DNA of 64,000 bases, taken from contig JAJDUJ010000007.1 in the NCBI GenBank assembly GCA_022826705.1, positions 211,134 through 275,133 of the forward strand, written 5' to 3'. A program made the position numbers and the translations under genes. A model generated the notes under the pieces. That model saw nothing but the letters and a program-made list of their open reading frames with translations, did no database searches and was not told where the DNA came from. This document shows positions 3,714 to 41,080 of this stretch, one piece after another. Source of the stretch: Acidimicrobiia bacterium (GTDB lineage: Bacteria > Actinomycetota > Acidimicrobiia > Acidimicrobiales > Bin134). How positions within the stretch are numbered: position 1 is the first letter of the stretch; each line of letters begins with the position of its first letter.

Positions 3714-3938
3714 TCAGAACAGAAGGCCGATGCCTTGGATGGCGCGCCAGGCCAGGTAGATGCCGGCGGCGGTGATGGCGACCCAGAAGTGCCAGGGGAC
3801 CTTTTGGCGAGCGGCGGAATCCATGTTGGGCGGGATCTCAACCGGCGTATCCACCGGGGTGCCGCAGGTGGGGCACTCCCCCGCCTCGGTCACCGAGGCG
3901 GGGTTCCAGAACCGGTCGCAGGGCTCGCACCAGGGCAC
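3714..3938 (-). CDS. small zinc-ribbon-like protein with C-terminal TM helix (hypothetical)
   Basis: 74 aa. Contains CEPC...CPTC (two CxxC pairs) followed by the hydrophobic stretch WHFWVAITAAGIYLAWRAI. No family name recognised. Confidence 0.5.
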   Translation of the reverse strand: MPWCEPCDRFWNPASVTEAGECPTCGTPVDTPVEIPPNMDSAARQKVPWHFWVAITAAGIYLAWRAIQGIGLLF

Positions 3939-4072
3939 GGGTATAGCTTGCCACCACTGGACTTCGCCGCCCGATCCGGCCCATCTGCCTGGCGCGTTGC
4001 ACCGAACAGATTCTCGGCGGTAGCGTGCTGTTTTCCAGCAAAATCCTTGCTAATCCGGAGGGAATCCCAGAA

Positions 4073-33688: not shown

Positions 33689-35188
33689 ATGAACGAGAAG
33701 AACCTTCGCCCAAGAAGCCCACAAGCAGTCGCCATTCTGTGCGCCGTGGCCCTCTCAGTGCTCGCCGCCTGCGGGGGTTCCTCTCAAGACCTCGGAGTCG
33801 GCGCTGACGCCGACGACGCGGATGCCGAGACCATCTCCGAGATTGATGTCGATGCCGGCTCCACTTGGCAAGAGGTATTCGACACGTTCAACGCCGCTGA
33901 GCAGTCCTGCATCAAAGACAGACTCGACGAGGACATATTTGAATTGGGGATGAAGCAAACAGCTATAAGCGAGGACACTAGGGAACAATGGGTAGCAGCG
34001 ATCTTCTCATGTTCTGAATTCGATACCCCCCGTCGACAGTTGCTAGGGGGAATAATGGCGGACATAAGAGAAGGGATAGGGGGAGAAGTGGAGGTGAGCG
34101 ACGACGAGGGGGGGTGCCTCCGGGATTGGGCAATCGGCCTCGATGACGACGACGTAACGGTCATGCTCACCCAAGATGACAATGCCATCGCCGCGGCCCA
34201 TAGTCTGGGAGTAATAGCTTGCGTGCCCGACCTGATCGTCGAACTCGTGACCACCGGGATGGGAATAAACGCCAGCGACCTGAGCGACGACGAACGAGAG
34301 TGCCTGCGGGAATGGGTAATCGGCTTGGATGAAGACGACATGACGGTCATATTCACCCAAGAAGACGATGCCAGCGCCGCGGCCCATAGTCTGGGAGTAA
34401 TAGCTTGCGTGCCCGACTTTATCGTTGAAGGAATGGCTGTTGGGATGGGAGTGACCGCCGGCGATCTGAGCGACGACGAACGAGAGTGCGTACAAGAACG
34501 AATAGCCGACGTCGACCCGGCTAGCCTAACCGCCGAAGACGACGCCACCCTTGAAATAGCCTTCTTTGGCGCGTTCGCCTGCGTGCCCGACCTGATCGTT
34601 GAAGGAATGGCTGTTGGGATGGGAGTGAACGCTGGCGATCTGAGCGACGACGAACGAGAGTGCCTGCTGGAATGGGTAAACAGCCTCGACGAAGACGATA
34701 TGGCGGTCATCCTCACTCAAGAAGACGATGCCGCTTCCGATGCTCTTGCCCTGACATTTGTTGCCTGCATGCCCAACCTGCTCCCCCAAGGAATGACCGG
34801 CGCGGTACCGCCGACCGCCGAATGCAACACGATCGCTGATGCAGGTAACGGGCAAGATGATCACGCCGACACCATCGCGGATGCCACCCCTCTCGCAGTA
34901 AGGGAGGCTGCCGAGGGCACGATTGATTATGATGTCGATTCTGATTTTTTCGTGTTCGAGGCAGAGGCAGACGAGTCTTACCAAATTGACGTTGCCCCAG
35001 GCACCATGCGGGATCCGGTGGTTTCGCTGTGTGACGGCGAGGAATTACTGGCTTACAACGACGACTATGACGGCTTGGCCGCGCGCATCTACTGGGAGGC
35101 ACCGAGTTCGGGTCCGTTCTACGTGAAGGTTGAAGGATGGGACACTGGCACCTACACGTTAACAGTCACCGCTGAAAGCCCGTTGTAG
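33689..35188 (+). CDS. secreted acidic Cys-repeat lipoprotein with C-terminal PPC (pre-peptidase C-terminal)-like domain
   Basis: Lipobox LSVLAAC|G. Contains 4-5 copies of a ~58-62 aa module (DLSDDERECLREWV..LDEDDM.VI.TQEDDA...IACVPD.IVEGMAVGMGV). The tail GTIDYDVDSDFFVFEAEADESYQIDV...GTYTLTV resembles a PPC domain. The gene is visibly lower in GC than its neighbours. Confidence 0.7.
   Translation: MNEKNLRPRSPQAVAILCAVALSVLAACGGSSQDLGVGADADDADAETISEIDVDAGSTWQEVFDTFNAAEQSCIKDRLDEDIFELGMKQTAISEDTREQWVAAIFSCSEFDTPRRQLLGGIMADIREGIGGEVEVSDDEGGCLRDWAIGLDDDDVTVMLTQDDNAIAAAHSLGVIACVPDLIVELVTTGMGINASDLSDDERECLREWVIGLDEDDMTVIFTQEDDASAAAHSLGVIACVPDFIVEGMAVGMGVTAGDLSDDERECVQERIADVDPASLTAEDDATLEIAFFGAFACVPDLIVEGMAVGMGVNAGDLSDDERECLLEWVNSLDEDDMAVILTQEDDAASDALALTFVACMPNLLPQGMTGAVPPTAECNTIADAGNGQDDHADTIADATPLAVREAAEGTIDYDVDSDFFVFEAEADESYQIDVAPGTMRDPVVSLCDGEELLAYNDDYDGLAARIYWEAPSSGPFYVKVEGWDTGTYTLTVTAESPL
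34091..34810 (+). repeat. in-frame 174-186 bp tandem repeats (4 clear copies) within the lipoprotein gene
   Basis: Copies of ga(g/c/t)(g/c)tgagcgacgacga(g/a)... start at 34091, 34277, 34463 and 34637 (spacing 186, 186, 174 nt). Confidence 0.8.
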
Positions 35189-35219
35189 TCTGCTGGTGGG
35201 CTAGGTAGGATGCCCCCGG

Positions 35220-35291
35220 TGGAGCTGGGGGGACTCGAACCCCCGTGGCGAGGTGTCAAGTCTGCACCGCCCCGACCTACCGGGCAGCCCC
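35220..35291 (-). ncRNA. 72-nt tRNA-like element (Ala-type acceptor, canonical T-arm, aberrant anticodon arm): atypical tRNA, tRNA mimic or pseudogene
   Basis: Minus strand reads GGGGCTG...GGGGG-TTCGAGT-CCCCC-CAGCTCC-A. It has a 7-bp acceptor stem with G3:T70 and a T-loop matching GTTCRANYC. The middle folds only as CCCG-GTAGGT-CGGG plus GGTG-CAGACTTGA-CACC (4-bp stem, 9-nt loop, no U33-NNN-R37 layout). CCG, not CCA, follows the discriminator. Confidence 0.5.
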
Positions 35292-35318
35292 AAGTGGAGA
35301 AAGCGAAGCTCTCTCCAA

Positions 35319-35357
35319 GGGCCGCACCGGGTCTGTGCATGAGACCCGGTGCGGCCC
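35319..35357. terminator. perfect 16-bp GC-rich hairpin
   Basis: GGGCCGCACCGGGTCT-gtgcatg-AGACCCGGTGCGGCCC. On the plus strand it is followed by CTTAGTATTGTAT. It could terminate the lipoprotein gene transcript and/or form the 5' end of the minus-strand RNA. Confidence 0.55.
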
Positions 35358-35362
35358 TTAGT

Positions 35363-35391
35363 ATTGTATGGACAGACATGACACTTACCAA
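35363..35391 (-). promoter_or_regulatory. sigma-70/SigA-like promoter candidate pointing at the hairpin and tRNA-like element
   Basis: Minus strand reads TTGGTA-N17-TACAAT (-35 at 35391-35386, -10 at 35368-35363) within a ~100-nt AT-rich tract. The predicted start falls at about 35357-35355, the first G residues of the hairpin. Confidence 0.35.
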
Positions 35392-39241: not shown

Positions 39242-41080
39242 ATGTTTGACCCGCCTGATGACGTGATTGCGCCGGATCGCCCCCTGCGAGTGGCTGTATT
39301 GGTCAAGCAGATCCCGGTGTTCGAGGACATGGTTCTCGGGCCCGACGGCCGCATGGTGCGAGACGGCATCGACATGCACATGAACGACTACTGCCGCCGC
39401 GCCGTGGCCAAGGGCACCGAGGTGGCCCGGGCCAGCGGGGGCACGGTGACCGTATTGACGCTGGGACCGCCATCGGCCGAAAACGTGTGTCGGGAGGCCC
39501 TCCTATTCGGGGTGGACGCTGGAATCCACATCTGCGACCCGGAGTTCGCCGGGTCCGACACTTGGGCCACCGCCAAGGCGCTGGCCGCTGCCCTGGATCG
39601 GTTCGGACCGTTCGATCTGGTGATGATGGGACGCAACTCAGTGGACTCCGATACCGGCCAAGTGCCTCCGCAGTTGGCCGAGCTGCTCGGGCTGCCGTTC
39701 GCCACCGGGGTTAGGCACTTCTCTCTTCACGGCGACCGCTTGGAGCTGCGGTTGGAACACGACGACGAGTGGGTGGACGTGGCCGTGCAGTTGCCCGCGG
39801 TGGTGTCGTGCGCGGAGCGATTGTGCGACCCGTGCAAGATCAAGGACCCGGAGGCCTGGGCCACGGTGGACAGCTCCCACATCCAGACGGTGAGCGCCGC
39901 CGACCTGGGTCCCGGCCCGTGGGGCCAGGAGGCCAGCCCCACCACGGTCGGGCCAGTTCAAATGATCGACGTGGAGCGCGGCCGCCAGATGATGGGCGGC
40001 ACGCTGGAGGAGCAGATCGAACAGGCAGTGGCCATCCTGGCCAAGAAGGGGGCGCTTGTCTCCAGCTCTATGCCCGAGCCGGCTATGGTTGCCCGGCGCT
40101 CGGGGGCCGGATCCGACGGCCCCGCCATAGCCGTGCTGGTGGAACCGGGCCGAGACCGGGTTACCAAGGAGCTTCTGGGAACGGCATCGGAGTTGGCCGC
40201 GGAGATCGGCGGACAAGTAGCCGCCCTCGGCCCTGGCCTGGACGATGCCGACGAGGATCTGGGCCCATGGGGAGCCGATGAGCAGATCGACATCTCAGGC
40301 GGCGATAGCAGCGCTTCGCTGGTCGAGGAAGATTTGGCCGCGGCCATGTCAGACTGGGCAGCCGAGACCCAGCCATGGGCCGTTCTGGCACCGGGCACCG
40401 CTTGGGGGCGGGAAGTGGCCTCCCGAATGGCCGCGACGCTGGGCGCGGGGCTCACCGGCGACGCAGTTGGGCTCAAGGTGGATGACCACGGGAAGCTGAT
40501 CGCCATGAAGCCGGCCTTCGGCGGATGGCTGGTGGCCGAGATTCTCTGCGCTTCTCCCATCCAGATGGCCACGGTTCGCGCCGGAGTGCTGCCCTTCCCC
40601 CGTCCTAATCCCGACCGCCCCCCAGCCCTCCAGTCGTCGCTGGACTCTCCCGGTCAGAGCCGCCTCGAGATCATCAGGCGCTACCGAGACGACGACAGCG
40701 ATGAGCTGGCCAACGCCTCAGTGGTGATCGGCGTGGGCCAAGGGGTGGACCCGGCCGACTACCCCAAGCTGGAGAAGCATCAGGCCGCCATCGGCGCCGC
40801 CCTGTGCGCCACTCGCAAGGTCACCGACTACGGCTGGATGCCCCGGGCCCGCCAAGTGGGCATCACCGGCCACAGCATCAGCCCGCGGCTCTACTTCGCT
40901 ATCGGCATGAGCGGAAAATTCAACCACACCGTGGGCGTCCGCAACGCCGGCACAGTGGTGGGTATCAACCCCGACCCCGACGCTCCCCTATGGGAGATCG
41001 TGGACATCGGCTTCGTGGGCGACTGGGCGGAGGTTTTCGACGCGCTCATCCCCCGCCTCGCCGAAGCCCAGGCCGGCTGA
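39242..41080 (+). CDS. fused electron transfer flavoprotein, EtfB-like N-terminal half plus EtfA-like C-terminal half
   Basis: The N-terminal ~240 aa resemble EtfB (VAVLVKQIP...NDYCRRAVAKG...VLTLGP...DLVMMGRNSVDSDTGQVPPQLAELLGLPFATGV). The C-terminal part resembles the EtfA FAD domain (ATRKVTDYGWMPRARQVGITGHSISPRLYFAIGMSGKFNHTVG...VGINPDPDAPLWEIVDIGFVGDW). It is a single 612-aa ORF. Confidence 0.8.
   Translation: MFDPPDDVIAPDRPLRVAVLVKQIPVFEDMVLGPDGRMVRDGIDMHMNDYCRRAVAKGTEVARASGGTVTVLTLGPPSAENVCREALLFGVDAGIHICDPEFAGSDTWATAKALAAALDRFGPFDLVMMGRNSVDSDTGQVPPQLAELLGLPFATGVRHFSLHGDRLELRLEHDDEWVDVAVQLPAVVSCAERLCDPCKIKDPEAWATVDSSHIQTVSAADLGPGPWGQEASPTTVGPVQMIDVERGRQMMGGTLEEQIEQAVAILAKKGALVSSSMPEPAMVARRSGAGSDGPAIAVLVEPGRDRVTKELLGTASELAAEIGGQVAALGPGLDDADEDLGPWGADEQIDISGGDSSASLVEEDLAAAMSDWAAETQPWAVLAPGTAWGREVASRMAATLGAGLTGDAVGLKVDDHGKLIAMKPAFGGWLVAEILCASPIQMATVRAGVLPFPRPNPDRPPALQSSLDSPGQSRLEIIRRYRDDDSDELANASVVIGVGQGVDPADYPKLEKHQAAIGAALCATRKVTDYGWMPRARQVGITGHSISPRLYFAIGMSGKFNHTVGVRNAGTVVGINPDPDAPLWEIVDIGFVGDWAEVFDALIPRLAEAQAG

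Follow-up and report, generated by a model that had tools for sequence, protein, structure and literature searches.

A putative compact RNA gene with tmRNA-type ends and no anticodon arm in sponge-associated Acidimicrobiia

The locus described here raises the question of what a tRNA-shaped RNA with alanine identity elements, and with no usable anticodon arm, might be doing on a bacterial chromosome. The sequence lies on the minus strand of the window (the whole 64-kb stretch of DNA that was analyzed), at 35220..35291, and is 72 nt long when counted to A73, with G1 at 35291 and the A73 equivalent at 35220, as placed by a sequence motif, by Rfam, and by alignment to our covariance model R1. The window itself comes from the chromosome of an Acidimicrobiia bacterium that is closely related to Candidatus Poriferisocius, a sponge symbiont. 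The answer towards which we lean, with slightly better than even confidence, is that the element is a selected compact tRNA-like RNA gene, derived from or mimicking the tRNA-like domain (TLD) of tmRNA and forming a diverged member of a family that we term class B, which would be chargeable and non-decoding and would probably modulate trans-translation or serve a role linked to mobile elements.

Fold of the element

Read from 35291 to 35217 on the minus strand, the sequence is GGGGCUGCCCGGUAGGUCGGGGCGGUGCAGACUUGACACCUCGCCACGGGGGUUCGAGUCCCCCCAGCUCCACCG. The acceptor stem is paired at all seven positions (1-7, at 35285-35291, with 65-71, at 35221-35227), G3:U70 included, with A73 as discriminator, and the T arm (positions 48-64; 35228-35244) has the canonical form GGGGG-UUCGAGU-CCCCC; the perfect 7-bp acceptor stem with its alanine identity elements, the canonical T arm, and the 72-nt length described in the first-pass annotation are all confirmed on this strand. 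A tRNA-Ala or an Ala minihelix presents the same G1:C72, G2:C71, G3:U70, G4:C69, and A73, which are determinants for AlaRS. Unlike tRNA-Ala, the element carries C8, at a position where U8 is near-universal in tRNA, and possesses neither a 5-bp anticodon stem nor an Ala anticodon.

Only 40 nt lie between the two arms, and a 5-bp/7-nt anticodon arm cannot form there, as had been claimed at the outset: C32-U33-UGA-C37-A38 stands at the standard tRNA positions, with just 29:41 and 30:40 able to pair (2/5 stem pairs). The 4-bp stem with a 9-nt loop that the earlier description had proposed does exist (GGUG:CACC), as an alternative central fold, and GGCGG:UCGCC is a further candidate pairing. U33-UGA is in register and is followed by C at position 37, which is a purine in canonical tRNAs. 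Measured against a canonical tRNA, the element has the 7-bp acceptor stem and the 5-bp T stem with a GTTCRANTC loop, and falls short both in detection at curated thresholds and in the 5-bp/7-nt anticodon arm with U33 and purine 37. The Infernal alignment to R1 offers a different central arrangement, in which a mini D-like hairpin (35271-35284; C8-C10:G19-G21) is followed by a central stem (G22-G27:C42-C47; 5' strand at 35265-35270 and 3' strand at 35245-35250) that encloses a 14-nt loop (35251-35264) containing a bulged C28, A29:U41, G30:C40, an A31.C39 mismatch, and the loop CUUGACA. The window-type copies keep the outer 6 bp of this stem; of its inner 3 bp just 1-2 pairs are left, next to a 5' bulge (A31.C39 is a mismatch, as is A29.C41 in the copy at L003).

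The 3' end reads ACCG in 4/4 window-type copies, with CCG at 35217..35219 after the discriminator. CC is thus encoded and the terminal A is absent, so that a CCA end would need post-transcriptional completion, unlike in the window's own tRNA-Pro, which encodes CCA. The motif GGGGNNG-N35-50-GGTTCRANTCC-N3-CNNCTCCA has one match in the 64-kb window and none in 100 dinucleotide shuffles. The folding energy of the element does not differ significantly from that of shuffled sequences (z = -0.9), and its unconstrained MFE structure is not a cloverleaf; the case for the element therefore rests on the motif match together with the comparative data.

ARAGORN in default mode called nothing at the element, its sole call in the window being a tRNA-Pro elsewhere; its tmRNA mode gave no call at the element, and its relaxed mode returned just an unconvincing "tRNA-Ser(act)", a call that we rejected. 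The Rfam search at gathering thresholds called no family at this position. The ARAGORN and Infernal/Rfam checks that had been recommended thus yielded no canonical tRNA call with a normal anticodon. The earlier suggestion of a Y-RNA-like mimic was also abandoned: no Y-RNA-type Rfam match was found for the element even at E<=10, its termini form a free acceptor end, at odds with a Y RNA-like (YrlA) molecule, whose tRNA-like module is embedded in a Ro-binding stem, and no Ro-type gene is present among the neighbors.

The locus and its conservation

The element lies between two plus-strand genes, those for an amidohydrolase and an acyl-CoA ligase, in a neighborhood of CoA-transferase, enoyl-CoA hydratase, amidohydrolase, acyl-CoA ligase, cupin, and ETF genes. 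As the first reading had stated, no rsr/Ro, Fem-type, or MprF-type gene is found among these neighbors (within ~10 kb for the Fem and MprF types). One of the neighboring ORFs, at 39242-41080 (+), encodes 612 residues with two ETF domains and an ETF-alpha FAD-binding domain; it is kept in all relatives, and its domain content suggests a fused EtfB-EtfA.

Comparison of 13 syntenic loci places the element within a module of ~250-290 nt that is found in four of them (the window, L003, L254, and L255) and is missing in nine, which indicates that the element is dispensable. In module-free loci (L001, L002, L004-L007, L248-L250, and L378), the amidohydrolase-ligase gap is 4-120 nt. One of these empty sites, from a Ca. 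Poriferisocius sp. (L007, ~3880-4000), holds about three tandem copies of a ~35-nt unit (CAGCCGTCC..TCGCCATAGC..CCCGTGTA). Read along the minus strand, the module contains an A/T-rich spacer with a promoter-like site, then two hairpins of 18 and 9 bp, and after these the element and its conserved trailer.

The G+C-rich 18-bp hairpin (35317..35359) shows two independent compensatory double changes among the copies. On the plus strand it is followed by a T-rich tail, resembling a terminator for the upstream plus-strand gene, and on the minus strand a precursor of the element would begin with this hairpin. The 9-bp leader hairpin GGAGAGAGC-UUC-GCUUUCUCC (35296..35316, minus strand) keeps its stem in the four copies while its loop varies (UUC, GAU, GAA), and a 4-nt linker (35292-35295, minus strand) joins it to G1. 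Just upstream of the 18-bp hairpin lies the promoter-like TTGGTA-17 nt-TACAAT (35363..35391, minus strand; one found against 0.1 expected), of which TACAAT and the opening TTG do not vary among the four copies while the surrounding spacer is 26-35% divergent. TACAAT (35363-35368), which looks like a perfect -10 box, is also the reverse complement of the T-rich tail of the plus-strand terminator, a caveat to the promoter reading. The plus-strand terminator and the divergent promoter-like box on the minus strand overlap in the window, and class B loci likewise show an A/T-rich box directly upstream of the hairpin.

On the other side, the 3' trailer (35180..35216, minus strand) is 73-89% identical to those of L003 and L254 and overlaps the stop codon of a plus-strand lipoprotein ORF. 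This ORF (33689-35188) has 499 codons, a signal peptide with a lipobox (LAAC), a G+C content of 0.605 against ~0.66, and, by eye, several ~180-nt internal repeats; it has no Pfam match. Found only in the window among the 13 syntenic loci, and ending ~40 nt from the element's 3' end, it looks, on that distribution, like a recent insertion adjoining the element.

Several lines of comparison bear on whether the element is selected. The copies in L003, L254, and L255 are 92-99% identical to that of the window, and the divergence between copies (1.3%, 2.7%, and 7.9%) is to be set against 24.5%, 25.4%, and 36.2% at the 4-fold degenerate sites of the adjacent ligase gene in the same comparisons, and against 26-35% in the A/T-rich neighboring spacer of the same copies (Fisher p = 6e-6 and 8e-4 for the element against the neutral comparison). 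Within the 32 nt of the acceptor and T arms, copies show either no difference or a single one. Read on the opposite strand, G3:U70, which never varies, would give a C.A mismatch, which argues that selection acts on the tRNA-like strand. On these alignments, the element is maintained by strong purifying selection in some sponge-associated Acidimicrobiia. The module has diverged in parallel with the genes on either side, as expected under vertical descent.

The covariation check across syntenic loci that had been suggested was only partly rewarded, with clear conservation and with double changes in the 18-bp hairpin, but with no compensatory double change inside the element among the four copies. 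Since these sequences are too similar for such changes to be expected, they leave the central fold unproven by these copies. Of the single changes, G43A in L003 leaves U26 paired, and G46, which pairs with C23 in three copies, is replaced in the window by a derived A46, giving a C23.A46 mismatch.

Could the element then be a functionless relic, that is, a decaying pseudogene of tRNA-Ala or tmRNA, or an att-site scar, as the first-pass annotation had offered among its options? Such an origin would account for the non-canonical central arms, for the derived mismatch of the window copy, for the incomplete CCA, and for the lack of the module in most relatives. We regard it as highly improbable, however, as a divergence of 1-8% against 25-36% at neutral sites disfavors neutral decay, and the element scores as a member of a covarying family (R1, below). 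The att-scar form of the idea was rejected on its own account, given that only the 3' portion of the tRNA or tmRNA gene survives in an att scar, while the element has a complete, complementary 5' strand and no integrase nearby. A selected RNA gene remains the reading that we carry forward.

A family of compact tRNA-like RNAs and its mobile neighbors

Pattern scans of metagenome and viral contigs, whose figures describe samples among the matches listed, recovered two classes of related RNAs, class A (75-80 nt, of the phage DS6A type) and class B (67-73 nt, typically ~68). The patterns demanded GGGGCUG/CAGCUCCA ends, so that the census is limited to those acceptor sequences; a broader first pattern matched mostly tRNA-Tyr genes and tmRNA 3' ends. 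Two 64-nt matches, in L118 and L028, were considered as mini RNAs and then set aside, as they proved to be 3' parts of full tmRNA genes.

Class B RNAs are built of a tmRNA-type acceptor stem (7 bp, G3:U70, A73), a 3-4-bp mini D-hairpin (loop UGGU, with the GG of a D-loop), a long stem, and a T arm. The central part is a stem of 9 bp, interrupted by one bulge, that closes a 7-nt loop Y-U-NNN-N-A, and there is no variable loop; in class B1 the loop triplets vary, CUA and UUA being among them. In the class B1 seed, a gapless set of seven 68-mers, 14 of the 24 pairs have compensatory changes, among them every pair of the D-hairpin and of the long stem, and 0/500 shuffles reach this covariation, a result that is biased in favor of the fold since the seed was picked for structural fit. 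RNAalifold applied to a plain MAFFT alignment of class B did not recover the central helices, owing to that alignment not being structural.

From this seed we built the covariance model R1, under which the four window-type copies reach 55.6-60.5 bits, end to end. Elsewhere R1 gives 50-66 bits for non-seed class B members, 38-50 for class A and DS6A (DS6A itself 38), 35-38 for tmRNA 3' ends, and 33.9 for the window's tRNA-Pro. On the strength of this score, and of the shared order of acceptor stem, mini D-hairpin, long stem, and T arm, we place the element in class B. It departs from the class in lacking the fully paired 9-bp central stem with its 7-nt loop, and is best described from its alignment as a diverged variant with an eroded inner stem. 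We found no description of class B in the searchable literature. The element would seem to belong to a widespread and largely unannotated family of mini tRNA-like RNAs whose members are associated with phages and insertion sequences.

The anticodon-like loops of this family raise the possibility of a decoding tRNA. On this account the element would be an Ala-accepting missense tRNA with anticodon UGA (reading UCA), in which one long stem replaces the D and anticodon stems. C32-U33-UGA-C37-A38 does fall exactly at the standard positions, the class B1 stem and loop would suit such a role with their variable triplets, and the loop CUUGACA of the window element recurs in the unrelated L215, with AUUGACA in L225. 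With just 1-2 inner stem pairs in the window-type copies, a C at position 37, rejection by ARAGORN, and the harm that an Ala-for-Ser decoder would cause, we consider this very unlikely. We prefer to see the element as a non-decoding RNA. A point against our own reading is that the inner part of the central stem covaries in class B1 and yet is mostly unpaired in the element, so that its lineage may be in the course of losing a function.

Among the 35 class B loci examined, an IS1-family transposase lies 128-513 nt downstream of the element in 10, on the same strand in nine, and one of these loci belongs to a Pirellulales genome (class B loci with an IS1-family transposase are L147, L175, L184, L210, L172, L170, L131, L222, L223, L190, and L109; NCBIfam transpos_IS1, 2e-17). 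An IS1595-like transposase is found at 3/35 (L138, L158, and L162), and a small opposite-strand RHH-like ORF at 7/35, ending 6-8 nt from the element in four. This ORF often stands between the class B element and the IS1-family transposase. Toxin-antitoxin-like genes lie upstream in 3/35, and one locus of the 35 is part of a satellite-like unit with an integrase and AlpA. A search for terminal inverted repeats around the class B/IS1 units of L147 and L184 gave none. An IS1-family transposase or RHH gene accompanies about one-third of members and is absent in the window, L003, and L254; indeed, none of the protein genes seen beside class B elements, and no transposase, integrase, or RHH gene, occurs near the window-type copies. 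What the class B loci and the window do have in common is a layout of a convergent gene, the element antisense to it, and then a terminator-like hairpin of the other strand.

Two readings give mobile elements a larger part. According to the first, which we hold only tentatively, class B would be a large ~68-nt alanine-acceptor family that travels with insertion sequences of the IS1 family, with satellites, and with toxin-antitoxin loci, and whose members act as suppressors, regulators, or decoys, the sponge-symbiont copy having been domesticated with loss of its inner stem. The variable anticodon-like loops include triplets that would read stop codons, and the RNAs could serve, for example, as alanine-inserting suppressors, as regulators of transposase expression, or as decoys or sponges that occupy the factors and toxins recognizing the acceptor arm of tmRNA or tRNA. 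The second is that the module is a mobile-element RNA or DNA feature, a remnant or solo copy of a class B unit that precedes an RHH gene and an IS1-family transposase, in which the RNA, or its antisense overlap with the 3' UTR of the convergent gene, regulates neighbors, or which simply marks an insertion hotspot. The transposases and RHH-like ORFs at class B loci and the shared layout speak for it, as do the patchy presence of the module (four filled and nine empty sites), a possible imperfect direct repeat of 16-18 nt at the module junctions, and the lipoprotein gene inserted close to the element in the window. Yet the window-type copies have no such mobile gene nearby, the L147 and L184 units have no terminal inverted repeats, the module has diverged in step with its flanking genes, and the invariance of G3:U70 points to selection on the tRNA-like strand, and we judge it unlikely, though it is the strongest of the alternatives. 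A compact RNA gene that is selected as such is therefore still the account that we favor.

Three class B loci adjoin another unusual RNA. Long-variable-arm tRNAs with anticodon UUA, which is of the ochre-suppressor type, lie 7 nt from the class B element in L223 (875-960, minus strand), L190 (1156-1242, plus strand), and L109 (5172-5269, minus strand), and ARAGORN names the one in L109 "tRNA-Stop". These pairs may, by analogy, be allo-tRNA-like polycistrons. In Acidobacteria, allo-tRNAs and "irregular tRNA" polycistrons have been described near transposon-related and toxin-antitoxin genes, some of them with G3:U70 and with diverse or stop-reading anticodons (Mukai et al. 2017, PMC5389517). Allo-tRNAs, which carry Ser identity and long variable arms, divide their acceptor/T stems 8/4 or 9/3; the window element has 7/5 stems, no variable arm, and tmRNA-type ends.

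Likeness to tmRNA and a possible role

It is to tmRNA that the ends of the element bear the closest resemblance. In a sensitive local search its top Rfam match was tmRNA (RF00023), at 40 bits against a gathering score of 47 (local E 1.8e-14), and the model aligns end to end (positions 1-374), with 326 core positions replaced by 30 nt of the element; the tRNA model of the same clan scores it lower. A full tmRNA gene was available for comparison in L118 (Ilumatobacteraceae, another family of the Acidimicrobiia; 1771-2148, 378 nt, tag ANEQFALAA; smpB does not stand beside ssrA there), and the element shares with it the acceptor stem (GGGGCUG/CAGCUCC), the discriminator A, and, bar one T-loop base, the T arm. 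Compared with this standard tmRNA, the element has the tRNA-like ends, with their G3:U70 acceptor stem and T arm, and lacks the resume codon, the tag ORF with its stop, the pseudoknots PK1-PK4, helix P2, and the gathering score, at a length of 72 against 378 nt. From the matching acceptor and T arms we conclude that the element's ends are of the tmRNA type, with the messenger parts of tmRNA absent. This character, and the likeness to CDS-less tmRNAs and to a wider compact family, were overlooked in the first-pass annotation.

CDS-less tmRNAs have been recorded in the phage DS6A, in jakobid mitochondria, and in Mallomonadaceae plastids, and the TLD-only tmRNA of DS6A has been reported to inhibit E. 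coli tmRNA (PMC4131195, PMC11915505). We located the latter at JN698994 28478-28557 (80 nt), where the GenBank record has no annotation. It is like the element in its G3:U70 acceptor stem, canonical T arm, tRNA-like size, and lack of tag frame and pseudoknots, and the Rfam tmRNA model aligns to both end to end with the core deleted; as in other TLD-only forms, the element's ends are nearer tmRNA than tRNA. Class A RNAs, with their tmRNA D loop GGUnUCGAC, P2-like helix, inner AAAnCC hairpin, and GAC junction, belong to the same type. They made up 105 of the first 120 viral matches listed, for a pattern with a single acceptor-stem sequence, and lie among phage genes. Class A loci include IMG/VR L258-L377 and, from metagenomes, L173 (4026-4102), L168, and L130.

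However, DS6A and class A keep the tmRNA-type D loop (GGUUUCGAC), which is stemless (GGnUUCGAC), along with the P2-like helix and the GAC junction, and these are missing from the element, which has instead the mini D-hairpin and another central stem; its D region reads CCCGGUAGGUCGGG, and its T stem is preceded by AC or GC in place of GAC. The two also differ in residence, the element being chromosomal and DS6A and its class A viral relatives being carried by phage. Scanning viral contigs for a pattern designed around the window-type element gave no match, and blastn against a phage database gave only T-arm matches to phage tmRNAs. The jakobid mitochondrial and the ~65-bp Mallomonadaceae plastid forms are of similar size and consist of the TLD only (PMC3590771, PMC11915505), though they are the sole tmRNA of their organelle, whereas the window element is most likely an extra copy in a bacterial genome of ~3 Mb. 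The element is thus of a known kind, that of CDS-less tmRNAs and irregular tRNA-like RNAs, and is a further variant of it.

How such an RNA might work can be sketched from these likenesses. It would be transcribed on the minus strand from the promoter abutting the 18-bp hairpin, cleaved by RNase P at G1, and trimmed at its 3' end and completed to CCA. RNase P, the CCA-adding enzyme, and EF-Tu all recognize the 12-bp acceptor/T stack. AlaRS would then charge it with alanine, as can be inferred from the fact that an acceptor/T minihelix with G3:U70 is enough for this enzyme. With no tag reading frame and with its inner stem disrupted, the RNA most likely would not decode. It would instead probably engage the factors that read acceptor and T arms (AlaRS, EF-Tu, and SmpB), and in doing so modulate or compete with trans-translation in the manner of DS6A, or serve the mobile-element role of its class B relatives. 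By analogy, a modulator or decoy role at the trans-translation or aminoacylation machinery is probable; expression, charging, partners, and physiological role are all inferred here, and no partner gene for the element is found nearby.

Of the options offered at first reading, a non-decoding Ala acceptor has thus turned out to be the best general description, although nothing points to the use in cell-wall or lipid aminoacylation that had been attached to it. As a predicted chargeable RNA with no decoding arm, the element could in principle donate alanine to a non-ribosomal aminoacyl-transferase (of the Fem/MurM or MprF type, or in an antibiotic pathway); Fem/MurM-type and MprF-type transferases read mainly the acceptor end. 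As no such gene occurs within ~10 kb of the element and the class B relatives are not linked to such genes, we give this idea hardly any credence and did not retain it.

Reports of CDS-less tmRNAs have so far come from a single phage and a small number of organelles, and the molecules have passed for curiosities; "truncated" forms are discarded by the pipelines that annotate tmRNA. If our preferred interpretation is right, a bacterial chromosome can keep a tag-less, non-decoding tmRNA-like acceptor RNA under purifying selection; DS6A-type mini-tmRNAs, for their part, are common in viral contigs, and a second, distinct class recurs beside IS1-family transposases. Should they be charged and bound by SmpB or EF-Tu, such RNAs would act as natural modulators of ribosome rescue or would represent a new class of mobile-element RNA.

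A further unannotated tmRNA-like region was seen in Pseudomonas phage SM1 (L252, NC_041877), at ~1276-1531, with a GGGGCTG 5' end and a perfect tmRNA 3' end (GGACGGGGGTTCGATTCCCCCCAGCTCCACCA). Between these ends, at ~1355-1430, lies a sequence that by eye is tRNA-shaped.
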